From: an uncultured Candidatus Saccharibacteria bacterium
GTDB lineage: Bacteria; Patescibacteriota; Minisyncoccia; Minisyncoccales; MHMH01
Direction: 5' to 3'
NCBI GenBank assembly: GCA_964393465.1
Contig: CAYMTT010000002.1
Span: 1-47,510, forward strand
Length of the DNA stretch: 47,510 bases
Shown: one piece after another, positions 6,971-18,176 of the stretch
How the letters are laid out: every line of letters begins with the position of its first letter
Position numbering within the stretch: position 1 is the stretch's first letter
Notes under the pieces: generated by a model
Told to the model about the DNA's origin: nothing
What the model saw: the letters and a program-made list of their open reading frames with translations, nothing else
Databases searched by the model: none
Translations under genes and position numbers: made by a program

Positions 6971-8203
6971 TTAGGCTTTTTTCTTGGCCTTCGTCTTTTT
7001 CTTTTCTTTTTTGGGTTTTTCTTTTTCCTTTTCCTGGCTTTCTTCATCTGGCTCTGCGCTTTCTTTGTCGGGATCTGCCGCTGCTTTTATTTCGGAGCTT
7101 TCCGGAGAGCGCACGTCTATTTTCCAACCGGTGAGTTTGGCAGCCAGCCTGACATTTTGGCCTTCCTTGCCGATGGCCAGGGAAAGCTGATCCTCGGGAA
7201 CCACGGCCAAGGCTTTGTTTTTAGGCATGATTTTTATCTCCAGAATTTTAGCCGGAGAAAGGGCGTTGGCAAGATATTCCTCGGGATTTTCCTGCCATTC
7301 GATAATATCTATTTTTTCCCCTCCCAGCTCGTTGATGACAGCCGACACCCTGGTGCCTCTCTGGCCCACCATGGAGCCTATGGGATCGACTCCTTCGGCG
7401 TCGGAGGCCACGGCTATTTTTGAGCGGGAACCCGGCTCCCTGGCTATCGATTTTATGACAACAGCTCCCGTGGATACTTCGGGAACTTCCAGTTCGAAAA
7501 GCTTGGTTATCAGCTTGGGATAAGCTCTGGAAAGAAACACAGCCGGACCCTTTGGAGTTTCCTCAACCTTCAAAACATAAACCTTAAGCCTCTGGCCCGG
7601 CCTGTAAAATTCCCCTGGAACCTGCTCTTCCTTGGGCAAAAGCCCCAGAGTTTTTCCTATATCCATGAAAACCGTCCTTCCTTCAACCCTCTGGACAATG
7701 CCGGAAATTATCTCCCCTTCCTTGGACTTAAACTCATTGAGTATGTAGTCCCTTTCGGCTTCCCTGATTCTCTGCAAGACCACCTGTTTTGCCGTCTGGG
7801 CGGCTATTCTTCCATAATCTTTGCGGGCTTCCAGCCGCATTTCCAGGTCCTCGCCGGCCTTGATTTTCGGATTTATCTTTTTGGCCTCCTCGAGCATGAT
7901 ATGCTTTTCCGGATTGAACCTTATCTTTTTTTCTTCCTCTTGGGGTTCTTTTTTTTCTTTCAGGTCTTGAAGCTCTTCTTCGGAATAAATCATGTCTTTG
8001 GTAACCACTTGCTTGACCTGCCAAAACTTCAAATCCCCGGTTTCGGAGTCGAGGCTGGCTTTCACTATCTGGCCTTTTTTGCCGTAGTCTTTTTTGTAGG
8101 CGGCAGCCAGGGCCATTTCAATAGTGTCCATTACTTTTTCTTTTGGAATCCCTTTTTCTTCGGCTATCTGGGCGATGGCCGAGGCGAAATTTTTTAAATC
8201 CAT
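6971..8203 (-). CDS. nusA: transcription termination/antitermination factor NusA (410 aa from internal start)
   Basis: MDLKNFASAIAQIAEEKGI... N-domain, S1-like region and two KH motifs (GQRGTRVSAVINELGGEKIDII; GKEGQNVRLAAKLTGWKIDV), plus a K/E-rich tail. Start moved to Met33 of the listed ORF (ATG at 8203), because the upstream extension is non-homologous. Confidence 0.9.
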   Translation of the reverse strand: MDLKNFASAIAQIAEEKGIPKEKVMDTIEMALAAAYKKDYGKKGQIVKASLDSETGDLKFWQVKQVVTKDMIYSEEELQDLKEKKEPQEEEKKIRFNPEKHIMLEEAKKINPKIKAGEDLEMRLEARKDYGRIAAQTAKQVVLQRIREAERDYILNEFKSKEGEIISGIVQRVEGRTVFMDIGKTLGLLPKEEQVPGEFYRPGQRLKVYVLKVEETPKGPAVFLSRAYPKLITKLFELEVPEVSTGAVVIKSIAREPGSRSKIAVASDAEGVDPIGSMVGQRGTRVSAVINELGGEKIDIIEWQENPEEYLANALSPAKILEIKIMPKNKALAVVPEDQLSLAIGKEGQNVRLAAKLTGWKIDVRSPESSEIKAAADPDKESAEPDEESQEKEKEKPKKEKKKTKAKKKA

Positions 8204-8302
8204 ATTTTTGTTTTGTTTAAAAAATAATGTCCGTTCCCACGGACAAAAACTGAATCTCTTAACTGAATTAAGAATATCATTTCCCAAAAGCCCTGTCAAG
8301 GC

Positions 8303-8331
8303 TTGACAAAAATATGTTTTCGTGATATAGT
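8303..8331 (+). promoter_or_regulatory. near-consensus sigma70 promoter with extended -10
   Basis: TTGACA (8303-8308), 17-nt spacer, TGaTATAGT (-10 at 8326-8331). Confidence 0.65.
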
Positions 8332-8336
8332 CGAAT

Positions 8337-8452
8337 ATTAGCCTTCGGCCATATGGGAGTCAGGCCTCAATTCCCTCCTTGATTGAGGACCCCTTTCGGG
8401 GATACGGGCTCTATGCCTAACGGACTCCCAGTTGATCGAAGGCTAATTTTTT
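8337..8452 (+). ncRNA. structured RNA of unresolved class (stable sRNA or cis-leader of the downstream mini-ORF)
   Basis: An 11-bp closing helix (8337-8347 with 8437-8447) runs into T6. Inner helices are 8355-8361/8423-8429, the hairpin 8365-8388 and the hairpin 8390-8401. It starts about 7 nt after the -10 element. Confidence 0.5.
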
Positions 8453-8465
8453 AAAGGAGGCCCAA

Positions 8466-8597
8466 ATGGCAGGAAAAGACAGGGAAAGAAAAATCAGAAA
8501 AAGAGTCAAAAACAAAACCATGAAAAAGCACGGATTCTCTTTAAAAAGAATTCCGGGACTCTGGCGGGAGCGCCTCGAAAAAAAACGCCGCAGGTAA
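8466..8597 (+). CDS. unlisted 43-aa highly basic peptide (MAGKDRERKIRKRVKNKTMKKHGFSLKRIPGLWRERLEKKRRR)
   Basis: Hand-translated. Perfect SD AAGGAGG at 8454-8460, 5 nt before the ATG. Stop TAA at 8595-8597, 1 nt from the convergent gene. Too short for the ORF track. Confidence 0.4.
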   Translation: MAGKDRERKIRKRVKNKTMKKHGFSLKRIPGLWRERLEKKRRR

Positions 8598-8598
8598 A

Positions 8599-8889
8599 TC
8601 ACCTCGGCGTTCTTTTTAAAATCCGGTAGCAGAGAAACTGAAGATTGACCGCCAACACTATCAAGGCTCCCAAAGTATAGTTGAGCCTGATAACCAAGTC
8701 TTCTGTGAAAAACCAAGACCTCAGGGACAGCACTGCCATTCCGAAAAAAAGGAGCCCGAACATTAGCCAGCTCACTCCTTCGGTGGACTTTCTTTTGTAA
8801 TTAAGTATAAGCTGAGGGAGGCTGGTGACCAAGAGGGCGGCCATGGCCGCCCAGGAGAGAATTTCAAAAAAAGCTGACATCGATTTCAT
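8599..8889 (-). CDS. PQ-loop / SemiSWEET-type small transporter (96 aa)
   Basis: Three TM helices and a PQ motif in the first helix (TSLPQLILNYKRKSTEG). The size is typical of bacterial SemiSWEETs. Confidence 0.75.
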   Translation of the reverse strand: MKSMSAFFEILSWAAMAALLVTSLPQLILNYKRKSTEGVSWLMFGLLFFGMAVLSLRSWFFTEDLVIRLNYTLGALIVLAVNLQFLCYRILKRTPR

Positions 8890-8902
8890 TTTATCATAAA
8901 AA

Positions 8903-8931
8903 AGAAAAGCCCGGAATTATCCGGGCCTTTT
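8903..8931 (-). terminator. intrinsic terminator after the PHP gene
   Basis: GCCCGGA (8909-8915), loop ATTA, TCCGGGC (8920-8926), flanked by A/T runs. Confidence 0.6.
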
Positions 8932-9834
8932 TTATTCGTACCTGTTTACAATCCTCCGCACCCTGCCTTCTTCGAAACGAAAGGGCAGGTTCAGTTCCAA
9001 GCCGAAAGCTTGGAATCCCCCCACTTCCCTTTTATTGCCGTCTGAATTGAGCCTGCCGTCCGACCAATGGAAGTCCGAACCTCCGCTTTCGAAAAGGCAG
9101 AAATCTGAAGCTATCTGGTGCAAAAATTCGGTTTGCTCTCTGGAATAGAAAGAATAGCCCGTTTCAATTCCGTCCAGTCCCAACTTCCTCAAATCGAGAG
9201 CCGTCCTTTCAATCCAGTAATTTCTGTCTTTCTTCCATAAAGGATGAGCCCAAAAAGCCATTCCCCCGATAGAATGAATCAAGGCAATAACTTCCCCGAC
9301 ATGGGGCCGGCGCCGATCCTGAAAAGCCAAGCCGTCGTCTGCCAGAAACTTCCCGAAGAACTGTCCCTGGGTTTCCAGGCCGTGCCTTTCCAGAATTGCC
9401 AAATTACGGTAACCCCGGTAAACCGCCCAGGCGATATGCGGCCTGTTGACGCTGCCGGGAGCAGTTTCCAGAATTTCTTCCAGGTTCACCTTGAACCCGT
9501 AATCCTGGAGCTTGGAAACCATTTTTCTCATCTGGGATATTTTGACTTTCCGCCATCTGGCCAGAAAATCATGGAGTTTAGGGGAAAGATAGTCGATGAA
9601 ATATCCGAGAATATGGAATTCTTTTTTCCGGTACTGGGAAGTGAGCTCTATTCCCGGGATTGTTTTCACGCCCAGAGAGCTTGCCGCTTCGACAAACTCC
9701 AAGGTTCCCCGAGTATTTTCGTGATCGGTAAGGGAAGCTACGCTCAAGCCGGCTTTTTGGCAGGCTTCTGCCACTTCGGTCGGACAGAACTTGCCGTCCG
9801 AATAGCAAGAATGCAAATGCAAGTCGAATTTCAT
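8932..9834 (-). CDS. PHP-domain metal-dependent phosphoesterase (300 aa)
   Basis: MKFDLHLHSCYSDG...LTDHEN... is a typical PHP N-terminal His motif. SD AAGGAGG lies upstream. Confidence 0.85.
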   Translation of the reverse strand: MKFDLHLHSCYSDGKFCPTEVAEACQKAGLSVASLTDHENTRGTLEFVEAASSLGVKTIPGIELTSQYRKKEFHILGYFIDYLSPKLHDFLARWRKVKISQMRKMVSKLQDYGFKVNLEEILETAPGSVNRPHIAWAVYRGYRNLAILERHGLETQGQFFGKFLADDGLAFQDRRRPHVGEVIALIHSIGGMAFWAHPLWKKDRNYWIERTALDLRKLGLDGIETGYSFYSREQTEFLHQIASDFCLFESGGSDFHWSDGRLNSDGNKREVGGFQAFGLELNLPFRFEEGRVRRIVNRYE

Positions 9835-9862
9835 TCACGCCTCCTTTTCAATGTGCTTGATA

Positions 9863-9891
9863 ATATTAATACGAAAAAAGAAATCGGTCAA
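9863..9891 (-). promoter_or_regulatory. sigma70-type promoter for the PHP gene
   Basis: On the - strand: TTGACC (9891-9886), 17-nt spacer, TAATAT (9868-9863). Confidence 0.5.
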
Positions 9892-9892
9892 T

Positions 9893-9930
9893 AAAAAAAA
9901 CGCCTCCGGGCCCAGAAAAGAGGCGTCTTT
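9893..9930 (-). terminator. intrinsic terminator after tRNA-Ala
   Basis: On the - strand: GACGCCTC ... GAGGCGT stem (9901-9906 / 9920-9926) followed by T8 (A-run 9893-9900 on the + strand). Confidence 0.55.
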
Positions 9931-9932
9931 TG

Positions 9933-10005
9933 TGGACCGTGCCAGAGTCGAACTGGCAACCTTCGCAATGCGAATGCGACGCTCTACCAATTGAGCTAAC
10001 GGCCC
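9933..10005 (-). tRNA. tRNA-Ala (anticodon CGC), no encoded CCA
   Basis: Hand-folded 73-nt cloverleaf: GGGCCGT/ACGGTCC acceptor with G3:U70, D-arm GCTC-AATTGGTA-GAGC, anticodon loop TTCGCAT, T-arm GCCAG-TTCGACT-CTGGC, discriminator A. Confidence 0.9.
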
Positions 10006-10301
10006 GAAAAAATACTTTTTATTCTCAAAGCTTCTTTTTCTACCAATTCTCCCTCGTATTCCGCCCCGTGGGCAGAACTTTTGTAAACCGGCTTTTTCTG
10101 GTCCAAGTGAAGATTAATCTCTGTTTTTGAAGTTTCCCGTGAAACTTTCACGTAAGCGTGAAATCTGGGATAGCCAGAGCCCGAGTTCCCTATCTGGCGG
10201 GAAAATACCAGCTCTACTCCTTTTTTTCCTTTGAAAAAGTATCCGCAGCTTCTCATCAGATTATACACGCCGGCGCCGGAAGAATTCAAGCTCAGCTTCA
10301 T
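9996..10301 (-). CDS. hypothetical protein (101 aa)
   Basis: Listed ORF. It starts 4 nt after the upstream stop. The last 10 nt, including the TAG stop, lie inside tRNA-Ala. No family recognised. Confidence 0.5.
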   Translation of the reverse strand: MKLSLNSSGAGVYNLMRSCGYFFKGKKGVELVFSRQIGNSGSGYPRFHAYVKVSRETSKTEINLHLDQKKPVYKSSAHGAEYEGELVEKEALRIKSIFSGR

Positions 10302-10304
10302 AAA

Positions 10305-11717
10305 TCACTCGGTTCCCACGCTGAATCTTATTATTACGTCAAAATCATTCACGTTCCTTTCCTCGTCCCGGCAGCGGACGAAAAAGCTGTAACTTTTTCC
10401 GTCTTCAAGCTTGGTTATTCTGGCAGTATGATAAGTTTCCTCGTCGTTTTGGGATCTCAAATAATTTCTCATATCTTTGTACTCCACTCCCTGGACTTCC
10501 GAATATTTGCAGTCGGCAGACTCGTTAGTGGTAACTCCGATATAAGTTTTCTCCGTTCCGGCAGGCAGCGTTCCTTTCGGCTCCAAATTCCAGCGTTTCG
10601 GGGGAATGGTGTCTTCTGGCACTCCTATTTTTACCGTAATGACAAAATCATTTGTATTTTTATAACCTTCCCTGTCTATGCATCTTACGTAGTATTTGTA
10701 CTCTTTGCCTTCCGAAAACCCGCCGACAGAAACCGTATGCTCGGTGCTCCAGGTCTGGTCAAAGTATTTATACATGCCCTCATAACTGAATCCCGAATCC
10801 ACGCTGTACCTGCAGTTTGCCTCCTCGTCGGTCTTCAAGCCGATGGTAGTGGTTTTTACGTAGTAGGGAAGTTCCTGGTCTTCTGCCGGAATGGGATCGT
10901 ACCTGTAAGGAGGATCGTATTTTTCCTCGTCTTCTTGTTCAGGGGCTACTCCCCCGACCGAAAACTCGATAAGGGCGTCCTCCTGGTTCCTGTTTCCGTC
11001 CATATCGCGGCATCTAACGTAATATTTGTAAAGCCTGTTGTCTTGCAATCCTCTGACGGTTTCGGTATGCAGGGTTTTATCATCGTTGTAGTCCATCCTA
11101 TAGCTCATTCTGTCGTATTCTTCAGATTGCTTGGAATAGCGGCAGTAGCCCGGCTCGTTCGTGCTCACGCTGATTTCAACTTCGCCGGTGCCGGCGGGCA
11201 AGGTGCCGGTGGGATAAAGATTAAAACGCATGGGCGGGCTTTCCGGAGGAACGTAGCTGCCACCGGGATAATATCCGCCCCCTGCCGTTCCTCGGCCTAC
11301 GGTGAATTTAATTACCGCATCTTGCTGATTTCTGTTGCCGGCCAAATCCCGGCAGCGGACAAAATAGGTATAGGTTTTACCCTCCCGAAGCCCTTTAATG
11401 GTGGCCTTGTGAAAGGTTTTGTCGTCGCTGTATTCGAACCTGCTCCTCATTCTGTCGTATTCTTCCGATTCTTTGGAATAGCGGCAGTAGCCGGGCTCGT
11501 TCAAAGTAACGCTTATCTGGACTTCCCTGGTTCCCGAAGAAAGTATGCCGTTGGGAAAAAGATTGCTTCTCACGGGAGAAGATTGATCGTCCGGATTTTC
11601 AACTATGGGTTCGGACAAACCGCCCCTTCCTCCCAAGGATTTAATTCCAAAAACAGCCGCCACGATTATAAGGATGACGCCCAGAATGAAAAGAATTTGA
11701 ATTTGGCCTTTTTGCAT
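10305..11717 (-). CDS. membrane-anchored surface protein with four tandem ~100-114-aa Cys-pair (Ig/FN3-like) repeats (470 aa from internal start)
   Basis: Start moved to MQKGQIQILFILGV... (ATG 11717), because the listed N-terminal extension runs through tRNA-Pro. There is a TM anchor, then four repeats sharing C(R/K)YS...Y..M...H...(I/V)..L..G..Y.(Y/F)(Y/F)VRC.D..GN. Confidence 0.8.
   Translation of the reverse strand: MQKGQIQILFILGVILIIVAAVFGIKSLGGRGGLSEPIVENPDDQSSPVRSNLFPNGILSSGTREVQISVTLNEPGYCRYSKESEEYDRMRSRFEYSDDKTFHKATIKGLREGKTYTYFVRCRDLAGNRNQQDAVIKFTVGRGTAGGGYYPGGSYVPPESPPMRFNLYPTGTLPAGTGEVEISVSTNEPGYCRYSKQSEEYDRMSYRMDYNDDKTLHTETVRGLQDNRLYKYYVRCRDMDGNRNQEDALIEFSVGGVAPEQEDEEKYDPPYRYDPIPAEDQELPYYVKTTTIGLKTDEEANCRYSVDSGFSYEGMYKYFDQTWSTEHTVSVGGFSEGKEYKYYVRCIDREGYKNTNDFVITVKIGVPEDTIPPKRWNLEPKGTLPAGTEKTYIGVTTNESADCKYSEVQGVEYKDMRNYLRSQNDEETYHTARITKLEDGKSYSFFVRCRDEERNVNDFDVIIRFSVGTE
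10317..11576 (-). repeat. four tandem coding repeats; repeats 1 and 2 share a ~56-nt near-identical DNA block
   Basis: The near-identical blocks are at 11104-11159 and 11446-11501 (offset 342 nt = 114 codons). Conserved Cys are at residues 108/152, 222/266, 332/376 and 433/479 of the listed ORF. Confidence 0.8.
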
Positions 11718-11722
11718 AAAAT

Positions 11723-11793
11723 TCGGAGTGCTGGGAGTCGAACCCAGACCACAGACTCCCGAAGCCTGCATACTACCGTTATACGACACTCCG
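11723..11793 (-). tRNA. tRNA-Pro (anticodon CGG), no encoded CCA
   Basis: Hand-folded 71-nt cloverleaf: acceptor CGGAGTG/CACTCCG (C1:G72, A73, typical of bacterial tRNA-Pro), anticodon stem CAGGC/GTCTG, loop TTCGGGA, T-arm CTGGG-TTCGACT-CCCAG. Confidence 0.85.
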
Positions 11794-11816
11794 TTGGTTT
11801 TTTTCACGTGAAACTT

Positions 11817-13274
11817 TTAAGTGACCCAGTATTTATCCTTGGTCATTTTGTCCATTTTCGTTTCAATTTCCTCTCTTTCCATCCTGGCTCTGCCGGCCAG
11901 CTCTTCCAGTTTTTTATCGGGGAGTCCGGCCAGCCTTTCTATTTCTTTTTCCAGAAATTTCTTCGTGTTTTTCTTTGGATCGTCCAAAACGTGGCCCAGG
12001 AGAACGTCCAGAATCTGGCCTACTTTGGGCCCCGGCTCCATTTCCAGCTTTTTCATCACGTCTTTGCCGTCGACTTTCAGCTTCTTTACTGAAATAGGAT
12101 CGCGGGAAACTTTCTCTATTATGTATTTCAAATGCCTGAGCTTGTAAGGTTCGGCCTTCGGCACCCCTGATCCTATCCTGTCGCATTTTCTCAGTTGCAG
12201 AAGCTCTTCCATATTTTCAGGGCCGACGTTCCTCACCAGCCTTCTGACCGAGCTTTCGGTAACCTCATTAACATTGTAGTAAAATAAATGGTATCTGACC
12301 AGCTTGGCAACCTTTTCTATGTCTTTTTTCGGGAATTTCAAGCGCTCCATTATCTGGACTGTCATTTTGGCTCCCGCCATTTCGTGGTTGTAAAAAGTGG
12401 CAGAATCCCCTTGGCCTCTCTTTGTTCTGGGCTTGGCAATATCGTGCAAAAGAGCTGACAGCCTCACGTATTTATTGAACTTCTGTTCGGCAGCATATTT
12501 CAAAGAAAACAAGGAATGCTCGTAGCAATCGTAAATATGGTGCTTATTCTGGGAAATCCCGTAGCTTTCTTCCAGTTCGGGAATAATATATGCGAGCAGA
12601 CCGAGCTCCCTTAAAAGATCAATGCCTTCTGCAGCTCTGTCCGACATTATTATTTTCATCAATTCCTCCCTGATCCTCTCTTTGGAAATTGCCCTGAGCA
12701 AGGAAGCGTTCTCTTTTACAGCTTCAAGAGTGGCTTTTTCTATCTTCCAGCCCGGCTCCAAAACTGATACCAGTCTGGCGGCCCTCATCATTCTCAAGGG
12801 ATCCTGGGAAAGCCTGGCTTTGGGATCTCCCACGGCCCTGATAATCTTTTTTCCAAGGTCTTCCCTGCCCCCGAAAGGATCGATGAGCTCCTTTTTTTCG
12901 GGGTCCATTGCCATGGCATTGACCGTGAAATCTCTTCTGGACAGGTCTTCTTTTATAGTTTTGGCAAAATTGATTTCGTCGGGATGTCTTTTGTCGGTAT
13001 ACCTGGCTTCCGAGCGGTAGGTCGTAATTTCTATCTCTTTCAGGTTTTCCTTCTTGCTGCCGGTCTTGACCGTTACCGTCAAAAATTTGTTTTCGTAAAA
13101 ACTGTCTGGGAATACCTTCTGGATTTCTTCGGGTTTGGCTTTGGTGGCCACGTCCCAGTCGCCGGGCTCCCTGCCTCTCAAAAAATCCCTGAGGCATCCC
13201 CCGACAATGAAAGCTTCATAGCCTTTTTCTTTCAGTTTCCCGACCACAGATTTTACTTCTTTGGGAATTGTCAT
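11817..13274 (-). CDS. cca: CCA-adding tRNA nucleotidyltransferase with HD domain (485 aa)
   Basis: Pol-beta NTase motif GGCLRDFLRGREPGDWDVAT, RRDFTVNAMA, and HD motif LLHDIAKP. Confidence 0.88.
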   Translation of the reverse strand: MTIPKEVKSVVGKLKEKGYEAFIVGGCLRDFLRGREPGDWDVATKAKPEEIQKVFPDSFYENKFLTVTVKTGSKKENLKEIEITTYRSEARYTDKRHPDEINFAKTIKEDLSRRDFTVNAMAMDPEKKELIDPFGGREDLGKKIIRAVGDPKARLSQDPLRMMRAARLVSVLEPGWKIEKATLEAVKENASLLRAISKERIREELMKIIMSDRAAEGIDLLRELGLLAYIIPELEESYGISQNKHHIYDCYEHSLFSLKYAAEQKFNKYVRLSALLHDIAKPRTKRGQGDSATFYNHEMAGAKMTVQIMERLKFPKKDIEKVAKLVRYHLFYYNVNEVTESSVRRLVRNVGPENMEELLQLRKCDRIGSGVPKAEPYKLRHLKYIIEKVSRDPISVKKLKVDGKDVMKKLEMEPGPKVGQILDVLLGHVLDDPKKNTKKFLEKEIERLAGLPDKKLEELAGRARMEREEIETKMDKMTKDKYWVT

Positions 13275-13296
13275 TTTAATTAATTATAGATCAAAT

Positions 13297-13325
13297 TTGA
13301 TTTTTTTCAAATTCTTCAGTAAAAT
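13297..13325 (+). promoter_or_regulatory. sigma70-type promoter upstream of tRNA-Arg
   Basis: TTGATT (13297-13302), 17-nt spacer, TAAAAT (13320-13325). The tRNA 5-prime end is 9 nt downstream. Confidence 0.55.
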
Positions 13326-13333
13326 AAGCTTGC

Positions 13334-13405
13334 GCCCTCGTAGTATAATGGATAAAACGACGGGCTTCGGACCCGTAGATCTCCGTTCGAGTCGGAGCGA
13401 GGGCA
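13334..13405 (+). tRNA. tRNA-Arg (anticodon UCG), no complete CCA (followed by CCG)
   Basis: Hand-folded 72-nt cloverleaf: acceptor GCCCTCG/CGAGGGC, anticodon stem ACGGG/CCCGT, loop CTTCGGA, T-arm CTCCG-TTCGAGT-CGGAG, discriminator A. The D-stem has one mismatch. Confidence 0.85.
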
Positions 13406-13481
13406 CCGGGGGGCTTGACCGATTTTCAATACGGAGGCATCATTATGGCAGTTTTTCAAAATCTGCTATAATATAAAAAAT

Positions 13482-13877
13482 ATGAAAAAAACATTATTGA
13501 CCGTTTTCTTTTTTTCGTTCCTCTTTCCGGGGATCGCCCTGGCTCAGGGGTTTTGCGAAGGTCCTCTGGTTCCCTGCCAAATAGGGGAATGCCAGTTCTG
13601 CGACTTTTTCGTAATGCTCAACAACATCATCAAATTCATGATGTTCTGCCTGGCCCCTTTGCTGGCAGTGGTGATGCTCATTGCGGCGGGAGGAATGCTT
13701 TTTTTCGGCGGTATGAAACCGGGACTGGTTCAAAAAGCCAAAAGCACCATAACCACAACGGTTTTGGGGCTGGCTCTGGTCTTTTGCGCCTGGATAATAG
13801 TCAACACCGTGCTTACCCAGACCGGCCTGGTCCAAGCTCCTTCATTGCTGCAGTGGTACAATATCGAATGCCAATGA
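13482..13877 (+). CDS. short VirB2/TrbC-like pilin (131 aa), candidate major pilin
   Basis: Signal peptide (..FPGIALA/QG), a Cys-rich N-terminus (CEGPLVPCQIGECQFC), then two hydrophobic helices joined by GGMKPGLVQKAKST. This is the same two-helix module as the N-termini of 28454, 30495 and 31579. TGcTATAAT at 13464-13472 lies 10 nt before the ATG. Confidence 0.7.
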   Translation: MKKTLLTVFFFSFLFPGIALAQGFCEGPLVPCQIGECQFCDFFVMLNNIIKFMMFCLAPLLAVVMLIAAGGMLFFGGMKPGLVQKAKSTITTTVLGLALVFCAWIIVNTVLTQTGLVQAPSLLQWYNIECQ

Positions 13878-13880
13878 CGA

Positions 13881-13953
13881 GCCCCTATAACTCAATTGGC
13901 AGAGTAGCGGTCTCTTAAACCGTTAGTTCTAGGTTCGAATCCTAGTGGGGGCA
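13881..13953 (+). tRNA. tRNA-Lys (anticodon CUU), no encoded CCA
   Basis: Hand-folded 73-nt cloverleaf: acceptor GCCCCTA/TGGGGGC, D-arm ACTC-AATTGGCA-GAGT, anticodon loop CTCTTAA, T-arm CTAGG-TTCGAAT-CCTAG. It starts 4 nt after the pilin stop. Confidence 0.9.
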
Positions 13954-13954
13954 C

Positions 13955-13980
13955 ATAGAGATTGAATCTCTATTTGTTTT
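13955..13980 (+). terminator. intrinsic terminator after tRNA-Lys
   Basis: TAGAGAT (13956-13962), loop TGA, ATCTCTA (13966-13972), then TTTGTTTT. Confidence 0.65.
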
Positions 13981-14012
13981 AAAATTAAAAAGAGGTACAA
14001 TAAAAACAGATC

Positions 14013-15272
14013 ATGTTACCGAGGGTAAAAACTTGGCCAAAAAAACTAGAGGGCTACCAAAAATTCACAACCAAAAAACAGCTTGAGCAGATAAAGCATC
14101 TTTCCCAGGAGCTCAAAGGGCTGAAAGTTGCGATGGTCAACTCAACCCCCAGGGGAGGAGGAGTGGCAGAAGTAATGAAAAGCTTGGTTCCCATGATGAA
14201 AGGAGTGGGGATTAAAGTGGAATGGTACACTATCCCCGGGCGCGAAGATTTCTTTAAAATCACCAAGGAGATGCACAACGCTCTCCAAGGGAAGCAATAC
14301 GAATTCGGCTTCAAGGCCAGAAAAAGGTATTTAAAGCACATGGAAAGAACCGCCTGCTTAATGCAGGACATGCGCCCGGATCTCTGGATAATACACGATC
14401 CCCAGCCTGCCGGAACCATTCAGTACCTTTCCAACTTCCATCCGTCTGTCTGTAGGCTGCACATAGACCTTACCACTCCCAACAGGGAAGTCTGGGATTT
14501 CGTTTCCGGCTACCTGGCAATGTACGACAGGGTGGTGGTAAGCTCAAAGGATTTCGTTAGGCCCGAAGTGAAAAAGAAAACCATAGTCTTTCCTCCGGCC
14601 ATCGATCCTCTTTCCCCGAAAAACCAGCCCCTGGACGTCAAAAACTGCAGAGAGATAATCAAGAGCTTCGGGATCAACCCCAACCGGCCCCTGGTAACCC
14701 AGGTTTCCAGATTCGATCCTTGGAAAGCTCCCATGGAGGTGGTCAAAAGCTACCAGCTGGCCAAAAAGAAAATCCCCGACTTGCAGCTGGCCATGGTGGG
14801 GCTCTTTCTGGCCCAGGACGACCCGGAAGCCATCAAGGTCTACAAAGAAGTGAGAAAGGCGACGGGGGGAGATCCCGACGTATTTTTATTCGCCGATCCC
14901 AAATACCTGGGAGGGTTGAAAATAAGTACGTTCGTCAACTCCATACAGGGAGCCTCGGACATTATCCTGCAAAACTCCAAAAAAGAAGGTTTCGGGCTTA
15001 CGGTAGCCGAAGCCATGTGGAAAGAAAAGCCGGTTATCGGAGGGGGCGCGGCCGGCATAAAATACCAGATAAAGCAGGGAAAAAACGGATTCGTGGCCTC
15101 CACTCCAAAGGAAATGTCGGAAAGAATCGAAGAATTGATAAAAGACCCCCAGTTGGCTTCAAAAATAAGCAGGAACGCCCGCCGATCGGTCAAAAGAAAC
15201 TTCCTGATGCCCAGGCTTTTGAAAGACTACCTTTTCTTGTTCAAACATTTAATCTTAAACTGTCGCAGATAA
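14013..15272 (+). CDS. treT: GT4 glycosyltransferase of the trehalose glycosyltransferring synthase (TreT) type (419 aa)
   Basis: Collinear by-eye similarity over most of its length to archaeal/Thermotogae TreT as I remember it: NST.RGGGVAE...[67 protein letters not shown]. Confidence 0.75.
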
Positions 15273-15276
15273 AAAC

Positions 15277-15549
15277 ATGCTTCCAGCAGAAGATAAAACC
15301 CAAATAATAAAGAAGTACAAGCTTCACGAAAAGGACACCGGATCCCCAGAGGTTCAGGTCGCCCTTTTGACAGAAGAAATAGAGAGGCTGCTTTCCCATT
15401 TGAAAAAGCACAAAAAAGACTTCCATTCAAAAAGAGGGCTTTTGAAAATGGTGGCCAAAAGAAGGAAACTCCTTGACTACCTGAAAAACGAAGACCCAAA
15501 AAGATACGCTTCTACCATCAAAAAAGTAGCCTTAAAATTAAAAAAATAA
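15277..15549 (+). CDS. rpsO: 30S ribosomal protein uS15 (90 aa)
   Basis: Typical S15: ...[53 protein letters not shown]. Confidence 0.95.
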
Positions 15550-15552
15550 GGC

Positions 15553-16053
15553 ATGGTCAAGTTAAAAGAGCAGCGGGTCGGAATTCTCATTGACGTGCAG
15601 AATCTCTACCATTCGGCAAAAAACCTCTACAGGTCCAAAGTCAATTTTTCAGAAATCTTGAAAACCGGAGTAGCGGGCAGAAAACTGATACGGGCTTTCG
15701 CCTACGTGGTAAGGACAAAGACCGGGGAAGAGCGGCCCTTTTTCGACGCCCTGGTCAAACTGGGCATAGAAACCAGAATAAAAGACCTTCAAGAATATTT
15801 TGGCGGTTTGAAAAAAGCCGACTGGGACGTGGGAATAACCGTTGACGCGGTAAGAGCGTCCGCCAGCGTGGACGTCATAGTCCTGGTTTCCGGAGACGGA
15901 GATTTCATCCAATTGGTCGAATACCTGAAAAACCAAGGCAAAAGAGTGGAGGTTATGGCTTTCGGAAAATCGGCTTCCAGCAAACTCAAGGAAACCGCTG
16001 ACGAATTCACCGACCTGGGAGAAAATCCGGCCAAATACTTGCTTAAAAGATAA
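15553..16053 (+). CDS. NYN-domain (LabA/DUF88-like) predicted RNase (166 aa)
   Basis: VGILIDVQNLYHSAK..., DVGITVDAV and VLVSGDGDFIQLVEYLKNQGKRVEVMAF match the LabA-like NYN/PIN-like fold signature. Confidence 0.8.
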   Translation: MVKLKEQRVGILIDVQNLYHSAKNLYRSKVNFSEILKTGVAGRKLIRAFAYVVRTKTGEERPFFDALVKLGIETRIKDLQEYFGGLKKADWDVGITVDAVRASASVDVIVLVSGDGDFIQLVEYLKNQGKRVEVMAFGKSASSKLKETADEFTDLGENPAKYLLKR

Positions 16054-16061
16054 ACATTATT

Positions 16062-18176
16062 ATGGAAAATAAAAACTTCAAAAAAGAAATAGGAGGAAGA
16101 GAACTCCAAGTGGAATTCAAAAAAATGGCAGAACAGGCTTCCGGCAACTGCCTGGTCAGATACGGAGACACGGTTGTCATGGCCACTGCCGTAATGGCCC
16201 AAAAGGACGTGGAAGGCAAAGATTTCTTTCCTTTGACGGTCGAGTTTGAAGAAAAATTTTACGCGGCGGGAAAAATACTCGGTTCCCGCTTTTTAAGAAG
16301 GGAAAACAGGCCTTCCGAAGAAGCCATACTGACAGCCAGAGCCATAGACAGAGCTATCAGGCCCAGATTCCCAAAAGATTTCAAAAGAGAAGTCCAAGTG
16401 GTAATTACCTGCCTTTCCTGGGACGGAGAAAACGACCCCGACGTAATAGGCTTGATGGCAGCCTCCTTGGCCTTGTCGGTTTCCAATATTCCTTGGGAAG
16501 GTCCAATAGCTGCAGTCAGGACCGGAAAAAAGGAAGACCGATTAATATTCAACCCCACTTACAAAGAAAGAGAGGAAGCGGAGATGGAAATGCTTCTGAC
16601 CGCCCCGGAAGAAGATCTGGTTAATATGATAGAAATGGAAGGTTCTCAGCTCCAGGAAGAAGAAATTATGGAAATTTACGATTTCGTAAAGCCGGAAATA
16701 AAAAAGCTGCTCGATTTCCAGAAAGACATAATCAAGGAAATGGGCGAAAAAAAGGCGGAAATCGAATTCGGCCAGAGGGATTTGCAGTTTGAAGAAGAAA
16801 TGAGAAAATTCCTGGGCGACAGGCTGGAAAAAGCGGTTTTCGGCAAAAAAACCAAAGCCGAAAAATCCCAGCAAACGGATAAAATAAAAGAAGATCTTTT
16901 CGAATTTGCCGAAAACAAATTCCCGGGAGAGAAAAAATCGGAATATGTCAAAGCCTTCCTTGACCGGGAAACCGACCGCATCGTCCACCAGAAAGCCATC
17001 GAGAAAGGAGAAAGGCCCGACGGCAGAAAACCCGACCAGGTCAGGGAAATTACAGGCCAGGTGGGAATCCTGCCCAGAACCCACGGATCCGGTCTCTTTT
17101 CCAGGGGAATTACAAGAGCCCTTTCCATACTCACTCTGGGCTCTCCCAGCGACGTCAAAATGATGGAAGGCATGGAAGTCAGGGGAAAGAAGCGTTTCAT
17201 GCACCACTACAACTTCCCGCCTTACTGTTCGGGGGAAATAAAACCCATGAGGGGCCCGGGCAGAAGGGAAATAGGGCACGGCATGCTGGCAGAAAAAGCC
17301 CTGACCCCTTTGATTCCCGACGTCGAAGAATTCCCCTATACCATAAGAGTGGTGACCGAAATCCTTTCTTCCAACGGATCCACTTCCATGGCTTCGGTTT
17401 CGGCAGCCTCCTTAGCCTTAATGGACGCCGGAGTCCCGATAAAGGAACCGGCCACGGGAATCGCCATAGGCTTGATGTCCGACCAAAAAGGCAACTATAA
17501 GCTGCTGGCCGACATTCAAGGGCCCGAAGACCATCACGGAGACATGGATTTCAAGGTGGCCGGAACCAAAAAAGGAATCACCGCCATCCAGCTGGACGTG
17601 AAAGTGAAGGGAATAAGCAGAGAAATGTTCAAGGAAGCCCTGGAGCTCGGCAAAAAAAGCAGGCTCCAAATACTGGAAACCATGGAAAAAACCATTCCGG
17701 GGTCGAGAAAAGAACTTTCCCAATGGGCTCCCCGCATTTACACCTTCCAGATAAAACCAGACAAGATAAGAGAGGTTATCGGTCCGGGAGGCAAGATCAT
17801 AAACGAGATAATCGAAACATGCGAAGTTTCCATAGACATTGAAGACTCGGGCAAAATATTCATTACCGCCGAAAAAGAAGAAGCGGCAGAAAAAGCTCTT
17901 TCCTGGATTAAAAATATCACCAGGGAGGTGAAGCCCGGCGAAGTCTTCCAGGGCAAAGTTAAAAGGATTCTCAATTTCGGAGCCTTTGTCGAAATTCTTC
18001 CCGGCCAGGAAGGCCTGGTTCACATTTCCCAGCTGGCTCCCTACCGGGTGGAAAAAGTGGAAGATATAGTCAAAGTGGGGGACATGGTCCCGGTAAAAGT
18101 CTTAGAAATAGACGAACAGGGTAGAATTAATTTATCAATTAAAGCCCTGAAAAATGGCGAACGAGGAACAAAATAA
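16062..18176 (+). CDS. pnp: polyribonucleotide nucleotidyltransferase (PNPase, 704 aa)
   Basis: Two RNase PH domains, KH (IGPGGKIINEI) and S1 (GEVFQGKVKRILNFGAFVEILPGQEGLVHISQL). Confidence 0.95.
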   Translation: MENKNFKKEIGGRELQVEFKKMAEQASGNCLVRYGDTVVMATAVMAQKDVEGKDFFPLTVEFEEKFYAAGKILGSRFLRRENRPSEEAILTARAIDRAIRPRFPKDFKREVQVVITCLSWDGENDPDVIGLMAASLALSVSNIPWEGPIAAVRTGKKEDRLIFNPTYKEREEAEMEMLLTAPEEDLVNMIEMEGSQLQEEEIMEIYDFVKPEIKKLLDFQKDIIKEMGEKKAEIEFGQRDLQFEEEMRKFLGDRLEKAVFGKKTKAEKSQQTDKIKEDLFEFAENKFPGEKKSEYVKAFLDRETDRIVHQKAIEKGERPDGRKPDQVREITGQVGILPRTHGSGLFSRGITRALSILTLGSPSDVKMMEGMEVRGKKRFMHHYNFPPYCSGEIKPMRGPGRREIGHGMLAEKALTPLIPDVEEFPYTIRVVTEILSSNGSTSMASVSAASLALMDAGVPIKEPATGIAIGLMSDQKGNYKLLADIQGPEDHHGDMDFKVAGTKKGITAIQLDVKVKGISREMFKEALELGKKSRLQILETMEKTIPGSRKELSQWAPRIYTFQIKPDKIREVIGPGGKIINEIIETCEVSIDIEDSGKIFITAEKEEAAEKALSWIKNITREVKPGEVFQGKVKRILNFGAFVEILPGQEGLVHISQLAPYRVEKVEDIVKVGDMVPVKVLEIDEQGRINLSIKALKNGERGTK

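Follow-up and report, generated by a model that had tools for sequence, protein, structure and literature searches.

The 47,510-nucleotide stretch of DNA considered here (the window; positions 1 to 47,510 of the forward strand of contig CAYMTT010000002.1, assembly GCA_964393465.1, from an uncultured Candidatus Saccharibacteria bacterium with a genome assembly of 646 kb in 27 contigs) contains, between two genes of the minus strand, a plus-strand element consisting of a promoter, a predicted structured RNA, and the Shine-Dalgarno (SD) motif AAGGAGG in front of a 43-codon open reading frame (ORF). One hairpin loop of the RNA presents CCUCCUU, the exact complement of this motif. The 16S rRNA of the host lacks the anti-SD, and this absence changes the meaning of the CCUCCUU/AAGGAGG pair. 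An earlier reading of the letters alone (the sequence-only reading) proposed either a stable, end-paired small RNA or a leader controlling termination or translation of a small basic peptide; every helix, hairpin, motif (CCUCCUU, AAGGAGG), T-run, and frame that it located is present in the sequence. Comparative sequence evidence now indicates that the element is a real, stand-alone structured RNA gene of about 115 nt, belonging to an uncatalogued family with a patchy distribution in a small-genome class of the Candidate Phyla Radiation (CPR) type. The reading preferred below is that the RNA acts in trans, its loop pairing with AAGGAGG of SD-bearing mRNAs; judged from sequence and by analogy, this is given slightly less than an even chance.

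A structured RNA gene and its homologues

Upstream of the RNA lies a predicted sigma-70-type promoter (8303-8331, plus strand) composed of TTGACA (8303-8308), a 17-nt spacer that includes the TGn element (TG at 8323-8324), and TATAGT (8326-8331). It matches the hexamers at 11 of 12 positions and is the promoter that the sequence-only reading had recognized. Three promoter-like sites occur in the 1.1-kb region, compared with a mean of 1.2 in shuffles, and in most of the family loci inspected, TTGACA and a -10-like box are seen by eye at the same distance 5' of the RNA. The RNA itself is placed at 8337-8452 (plus strand) by its fold z-score and by covariance-model matches, both transcript ends being predicted. 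The minimum-energy fold of 8334-8455 shows a closing stem of 22 bp that holds a four-way junction with three hairpins. In the closing helix, supported by the fold and by covariation, the 5' strand (8337-8361, plus strand; 22 pairs with two small internal loops) pairs with the 3' strand (8423-8447, plus strand) in the segments 8337-8348/8436-8447, 8350-8351/8433-8434, and 8354-8361/8423-8430; the end-pairing noticed earlier is present, and its outer segment is 12 bp long in the fold, not 11. Hairpin 1 (8365-8388, plus strand; fold, covariation) carries at 8373-8380 the loop CCCUCCUU, which looks like an anti-SD and in which CCUCCUU occupies 8374-8380 and is unpaired in both the minimum-energy and centroid folds. 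Hairpin 2 (8390-8401, plus strand), CCCC-UUUC-GGGG, is supported by the fold and by pairing in 99.1% of alignment cells, and its loop grows to about 40 nt in other families. Hairpin 3 (8406-8418, plus strand; fold), GGGC-UCUAU-GCCU, had been absent from the earlier list; three of its pairs are retained in the model, all with 100% pairing, and two of these covary. The fold energy is -56.7 kcal/mol, compared with -33.2 +/- 3.8 kcal/mol for 200 dinucleotide-preserving shuffles (z = -6.25), none of which was as stable. A T6 run (8447-8452, plus strand) comes right after the closing helix, and transcription probably terminates there by the intrinsic mechanism. A T-run 3' of the helix is found in many homologues, and in others a separate hairpin and T-run lie further on (by eye). 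Together, a promoter of its own that is conserved in relatives and a 3' helix with T-run or a terminator hairpin predict an independent transcription unit.

A blastn search of 41 related genomes matched the RNA part in a single relative, at 81% identity, and did not match the ORF part; in this relative the RNA is again divergent from nusA, with the promoter TTGACA-17-TATAAT. Further homologues were found in three rounds of covariance models, each built from the growing alignment, in which the window RNA scored 139.2, 117.9, and 115.9 bits. Matches, one copy per genome, were obtained in 10 of 19 family genomes, 10/151 genomes of an order sample, and 14/151 of a class sample, the latter two being lower bounds because these searches used Infernal's stricter filters. 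Each count takes in the window's own genome, which gives 30 different genomes with the RNA in total, and the samples are subsamples with members related to one another. In the alignment of 28 sequences (locus L059 was excluded, its E-value being below the cut used to drop reverse-strand matches), 94.5% of cells hold standard pairs, compared with 37-54% after a shift of the 3' partners by 1-3 columns. Changes on both sides are seen in 34 of the 37 pairs, and 0/500 column shuffles reach any of five measures. Such changes affect 21 of 22 closing-helix pairs, all 8 stem pairs of hairpin 1 covary, and the earlier alignment rounds agree. Fitting the alignment to the structure of the model gives that structure an advantage; even so, the controls with shifted partners and the number of different pair types argue that the covariation signal is real. 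The helices that the sequence-only reading had drawn from one sequence are thus seen to covary among relatives. The plus strand scores about 116-139 bits, roughly threefold the value of about 40 bits for the opposite strand, and this difference, with the many G-U pairs, identifies the plus strand as the transcribed one. Near-invariance across the class is seen in the junction strands (GAUA after hairpin 2 and the A-rich strand that precedes the 3' helix) as well as in the inner closing helix. With a single copy in each of 30 genomes, compensatory covariation, and gene neighbours that vary, the stable end-paired small RNA with its own promoter, one of the two options considered earlier, has held up.

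Paired ends, a length of about 115 nt, one copy per genome, and a strong promoter would also suit a divergent known housekeeping or catalytic RNA, such as the RNA of the signal recognition particle (SRP), 6S or Y RNA, a piece of transfer-messenger RNA (tmRNA), or a small ribozyme. Moreover, the roles of SRP RNA and tmRNA look unfilled in the host: the SRP RNA models RF00169 and RF01854 gave no match in the whole genome, RF00169 even at E up to 10 (as a control, RF00169 was matched in 12-13 of 14 reference genomes), and no tmRNA was found by ARAGORN on the 27 contigs. However, an SRP RNA would have no partner there, since neither SRP_SPB (PF02978) nor the SRP54-type GTPase PF00448 (Ffh/FtsY) was found in the host genome; PF00448 gave weak P-loop matches only, in 3 of 25 order genomes, compared with matches in 14/14 control genomes. 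SRP RNA identity was rejected on these two grounds, the lack of a model match and of SRP proteins, and the order-wide picture fits either the loss of the SRP pathway throughout the lineage or genes that have diverged very strongly. Nor does the RNA resemble any other catalogued family. Searched with Rfam 15 at gathering thresholds, the window returned four tRNAs only; the region 8200-8700 at E up to 10 gave one chance match to a long non-coding RNA inside the ORF (11.4 bits against a threshold of 55 bits), and 20 homologous loci at E up to 1 gave nothing at the RNA's position, in line with the earlier failure to assign a class by eye. Only a minority of related genomes carry the RNA, unlike an essential RNA, and a housekeeping or catalytic identity of this kind is considered highly improbable.

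The loop, the 16S rRNA and the SD-like sites

Among the 28 aligned homologues, CCUCC lies in hairpin 1 in 23 and in the loop of hairpin 2 in 2, which makes it apical in 25/28; in L059, outside the 28, it is seen by eye in hairpin 2. The loop reads (U)CCCUCCUU in the window's family and (U/C)ACCUCCUU(U) in the order's other families; a family from a different order has CCCUCCUG, locus L022 has CACCUCCUU, and locus L058 has GGAUCCCUCCUUA; for comparison, the 16S end in relatives retaining the anti-SD is GGATCACCTCC. That CCUCC stays apical even after moving to another hairpin suggests that selection keeps the loop as a single-stranded anti-SD look-alike, and this conservation, with the unpaired state of the loop in the window folds, is consistent with a conserved seed. 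Alignments inspected by eye only showed no covariation in support of an internal pseudoknot, in which the CCUCC loop would pair either with GGGG in hairpin 2 or with GGAGG in the 3' strand.

In the host 16S gene (contig C10, from about 31006 downward on the minus strand; locus L027, about 1440-1501), the sequence after GGATCA is TACATTTTT, with no CCTCC, and the gene ends in ...GGATCATACATTTTT. No CCTCC is present in the assembled host 16S pieces or in the 700 bases downstream. The AAGGAGG that the sequence-only reading had called a perfect SD is indeed exact in its letters, as is its complement CCUCCUU, but its usual meaning is excluded by this 16S end. The anti-SD is missing in all 7 family genomes with a readable 16S end. 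For the larger samples, anti-SD status was taken from one exact 14-nt marker, AAGTCGTAACAAGG, and the presence of CCTCC 24-34 nt after it: in the order sample, 81/151 genomes have the marker and CCTCC stands at the expected distance in 3 of them (78/81 without), and in the class sample of 151, 90 genomes have the marker, 32 with CCTCC and 58 without. Ten of the 11 RNA-bearing genomes with a readable 16S end lack the anti-SD. A restriction of the RNA to anti-SD-less lineages is not claimable, as these 10 fall in about three clades that lack the anti-SD anyway, and the remaining genome, G275, has it. It has already been published that a subgroup of Parcubacteria has lost the anti-SD, and passages of that paper suppose that SD helices have ceased to form in these bacteria (Tsurumaki et al., 2022; PMC9297842). 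Judged by this loss and by its 646-kb genome, the host may stand close to that subgroup. As a separate observation, in the family genome G008 (contig C1, locus L035) the 16S gene is interrupted near its 3' end by an insert of more than 1 kb with open reading frames, after which the last 16S helix and a tail without the anti-SD resume.

SD-like sites persist NEVERTHELESS in the host genome. In a crude gene set (non-overlapping long ORFs, start taken as the first ATG, no gene caller), GGAGG peaks sharply, starting at -15 to -7 before the starts. It occurs at -16..-8 in 42 of 658 genes (about 6%), compared with 4 among 650 starts in the control window -56..-48, an enrichment of about 10-fold, and no other permutation of G3A2 is enriched; SDs are rare in this host, as the sequence-only reading had said. 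The site consensus is AAAAGGAGG-N6-ATG, often shortly after a TTGACA/TATAAT promoter, and AAGGAGG-N4-9-ATG has 44 occurrences vs 7 for the reversed control. One of the 42 genes is the PHP-domain gene of the window (8932-9834, minus strand), and another is a spurious frame inside the 16S gene; the other 40 were scanned against Pfam, which assigned families to 17 and none to 23. Represented are SecY, RecA, adenylosuccinate synthetase, NDK, thymidylate kinase, NT5C, a class-II amidotransferase, M16 and M42 peptidases, GNAT, and, on contig C13, two Pup-ligase genes, an AAA ATPase, and a Lon-like protease. The C13 cluster (8838-17300, minus strand) comprises six consecutive ORFs, including one of 79 aa between the two Pup-ligase genes; five of the six have a strong AAGGAGG, and the cluster looks acquired. 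The purA gene is missing in 4/5 and ndk in 5/5 of the family relatives searched, which makes many SD-bearing genes look accessory; the sole purA homologue found (G008, 57% identity) has AAGGAGGTG-N5-ATG. A different signal is also present before starts genome-wide: the -10-like 5-mers TATAA, ATAAT, and AATAA are 5-7-fold enriched at -16..-8 before ATG, which suggests that many host mRNAs are leaderless or nearly so.

In the preferred reading, the RNA is transcribed from its own strong promoter and probably ends at the T-run after the closing helix; this helix holds the four-way junction, and the apical loop presents CCUCCUU single-stranded. The loop would then pair in trans with AAGGAGG-type sites just 5' of start codons. 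The targets would be the minority of mRNAs that have such sites (about 42 host genes, many of them accessory), and pairing would alter their translation or stability. Since the host 16S rRNA has lost its own anti-SD, the ribosome would not compete for the sites. This is supported by the exact 7-nt complementarity and by the location of the sites, where the duplex would cover the start region; complements of the loop are provided by the GGAGG set of 42 genes in the same genome.

Several observations weigh against pairing with mRNAs. CCUCC is missing entirely in 3/28 homologues, and the variant in genome G013, which scores 26 bits, is reduced and lacks hairpin 1. Conservation of the junction and of hairpin 3 goes beyond the needs of a simple seed-carrying small RNA (sRNA), a hint that the partner is a protein or the ribosome. 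The base that follows GGAGG in the targets is mostly T, as in classical SDs, and rarely the G that the family's CCCUCC loop would favour; inspection by eye revealed no complementarity of the loop flanks beyond AAGGAGG in the targets. Furthermore, the RNA and its proposed sites do not co-occur across genomes. Every one of the 19 family genomes shows an excess of GGAGG-N4-9-ATG over the reversed control, of 1.3-3.6-fold. The highest value belongs to G008, an assembly of 6 contigs and 97% completeness that has no RNA, either at the nusA locus or elsewhere, and no anti-SD. In the class sample, the median ratio for AAGGAGG-N4-9-ATG is 3.69 in the 14 genomes with the RNA vs 3.80 in the 137 without (Mann-Whitney P = 0.85), and the ratio is 4.15 in genomes without the 16S anti-SD (n = 58) vs 2.42 in those with it (n = 32; P = 0.02), neither test being corrected for relatedness. 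The presence of both the RNA and the anti-SD in G275 means that the RNA is not tied to anti-SD loss. The RNA as an obligatory reader of SD sites in anti-SD-less genomes is unsupported by the phyletic pattern. As far as these genome comparisons go, the RNA neither keeps SD-like sites in these genomes nor obligatorily replaces the lost anti-SD.

The same data bear on the proposal that the RNA docks on the small ribosomal subunit and lends its CCUCCUU loop as a trans-supplied anti-SD to place SD-bearing mRNAs. The proposal would fit a host 16S without an anti-SD, the lack of an anti-SD in 10/11 readable RNA-bearing genomes, and the GGAGG peak at classical spacing, which suggests a ribosome-like geometric constraint. 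However, most anti-SD-less genomes have no detectable RNA (it is found in 10/151 genomes of the order sample, in which 78/81 lack the anti-SD), and genomes without the RNA show the same or higher SD-motif excess, the highest being that of the nearly complete G008, which has neither RNA nor anti-SD; G275 has both the RNA and the 16S anti-SD. In five family genomes without the RNA, a crude search for a further CCTCCTT element with a promoter gave nothing convincing (5 matches vs 1 in the control, none with the right -10 by eye). Such a role is therefore regarded as very unlikely.

More weight is given to the conserved junction by an explanation in which the junction and the CCUCC loop mimic the 16S 3' tail and bind or titrate a protein that recognizes this sequence, in place of pairing with mRNAs; a KH-domain or ribosome-assembly factor, a nuclease, or a small-subunit protein would be candidates. 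The near-invariance of the junction strands and inner closing helix across the class exceeds the needs of a seed, and the presence of the RNA is unrelated to SD-motif abundance. The L058 loop, GGAUCCCUCCUUA, is near the GAUCA-CCUCC element, which is bound by the KH domain of Era according to a passage in a review (PMC10582724). On the other hand, no partner candidate has been identified, Era not having been searched for in the host genome, and the adjacency to nusA is confined to one family. A decoy of this kind is thought unlikely, and the share of probability left by all these explanations falls to functions unrelated to the loop.

Neighbouring genes and the downstream frame

In the window, the RNA is flanked by nusA (6971-8203, minus strand), its divergent neighbour in 9/9 family loci examined. 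The nusA promoter (8271-8299, minus strand; TTGACA, 17 nt, TATTCT; 10/12 with TG) is back to back with that of the RNA, and its TGTCAAG is kept in relatives' loci (by eye). Between this promoter (8299-8271) and the nusA start (8203), the leader contains at 8228-8245 (minus strand) a GC-rich hairpin, TGTCCGTGGGAACGGACA, with a T-run behind it; by eye, the nusA leaders of relatives show similar hairpins, and the one in the window may be an attenuator for NusA autoregulation. In G008 (L045), the same back-to-back promoter drives, in place of the RNA gene, AAAAAAGGAGG-N5-ATG and a long basic ORF, whose likeness to the 43-aa frame is not evident by eye. On the other side of the RNA, a PQ-loop/SemiSWEET-like membrane protein gene (8599-8889, minus strand) is convergent with it, and a weak terminator-like site of this gene lies at 8533-8518 (minus strand), inside the 43-codon frame. 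In other families, the neighbours are RtcA or PolX upstream with DUF218 downstream, ClpP with iPGM, DUF4340, or SLT_2; the gene downstream is usually convergent and varies between loci. In several loci, transfer RNA genes are found no more than a few hundred bases away from the RNA. In one of the homologues without a CCUCC loop (L018 of G089, 1501-1691), a tRNA gene begins 6 nt 3' of the RNA on the same strand, and judging from this arrangement the two are probably co-transcribed and processed together.

Directly after the T-run, AAGGAGG (8454-8460, plus strand) stands 5 nt 5' of the ATG of a K/R-rich frame of 43 codons ending in TAA (8466-8597, plus strand), which is probably not a conserved gene. 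The exact complementarity over 7 nt, the well-spaced start, and the open frame speak for the second option of the sequence-only reading, a cis-acting leader in which CCUCCUU pairs with AAGGAGG to control termination or translation of the 43-codon peptide. So does AAGGAGG-N6-ATG behind the RNA in a further locus, L054, which comes from another order. However, L054 is the only such case in 28 other loci, and its frame, of 30 codons, is non-basic and unrelated. None of the 28 loci has a similar peptide downstream of the RNA, the best tblastn match being E = 0.041 over 18 aa. The 43-aa peptide has no Pfam match at E up to 1, no NCBIfam match at E up to 10, and no homologue among the proteins of 23-76 aa in a collection of 5.8 billion proteins, so that neither its conservation nor the leader proposed for it is upheld. 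Since the neighbouring genes differ between families, the RNA is not a leader; in the relatives' loci, the same downstream gene on the same strand is not found, and the downstream genes are mostly on the opposite strand. The length of the frame is also unremarkable: 8454-8600 has 17 T in 147 bases, and such T-poor DNA yields an open frame of at least 43 codons in 36% of mononucleotide shuffles; a second frame is open as well. The A-rich strand of the frame is complementary to the T-rich stretch that follows the convergent membrane-protein gene. The leader is thus largely refuted at the level of the family and is given very little probability. Two protein identities were also rejected for the frame: bL34, to which there is a faint likeness, is encoded elsewhere in the window (C2:34136-34249), and a small ribosomal or nucleic-acid-binding protein is matched by no family and no conserved homologue. 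From its sequence context, the frame is probably accidental and outside the conserved device, AAGGAGG and frame being peculiar to the host genome. Its exact AAGGAGG with ATG stays unusual, in a form shared with the SD-like sites of the 42 genes and so with the start regions of about 40 real host genes, and translation from read-through transcripts may occur, for the host organism only.

Meaning and comparison with known RNAs

To our knowledge, almost nothing is known of regulatory or structural RNAs in CPR bacteria (Patescibacteria). In the literature on the anti-SD and on small or structured RNAs of CPR, Patescibacteria, and Parcubacteria, no such RNA was found described. Two bioRxiv preprints of 2026, looked up by term, gave no mention of Patescibacteria, CPR, nusA, or the anti-SD, although their supplements could list such a cluster. 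By appearance, the RNA is a well-supported new family, found in 30 genomes of a class with 34/37 pairs covarying. Genomes without an anti-SD keep a sharp GGAGG signal, and some of them encode an abundant-looking RNA that shows the missing letters in a loop; together, these observations offer a testable handle on translation start and its control on ribosomes without an anti-SD. A more far-reaching thought, put forward as an improbable one, is that the clade has uncoupled the SD/anti-SD pair from the ribosome and that the RNA reads the SD as a tag, either delivering the tagged mRNAs, as an anti-SD in trans, to ribosomes that lack one or selectively silencing messages of foreign type. If true, the silencing version would amount to discrimination between self and acquired genes at the level of translation. 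If the RNA is merely an ordinary SD-blocking sRNA, it still provides a useful family for annotating CPR genomes.

Compared with SRP, 6S, and Y RNAs, the RNA shares the long helix formed by its ends, the single copy, and the strong promoter, but it differs in matching no covariance model, in a host where SRP proteins were not found, and in its patchy distribution. Its likeness to the 16S 3' tail of relatives (GGATCACCTCC) lies in the same 5-9 letters, CCUCC(UU), in single-stranded form, most extended in the L058 loop GGAUCCCUCCUUA; here, however, the letters belong to the hairpin loop of a separate RNA and not to a free 3' end. Trans-acting sRNAs with C/U-rich anti-SD seed loops are known from Gram-positive bacteria, among them the cia-dependent small RNAs (csRNAs) of streptococci and RsaE/RoxS. 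Like them, the RNA has its own promoter, a terminator-like 3' end, a length of about 100 nt, and no fixed neighbour, and presents an unpaired pyrimidine-rich loop complementary to GGAGG at mRNA starts. Unlike them, it matches no Rfam family and has a 22-bp closing helix and a conserved junction, which are kept class-wide. A further difference is set by the host: its ribosome has no anti-SD, so a loop of this kind would meet its mRNA sites without competition from 16S rRNA.

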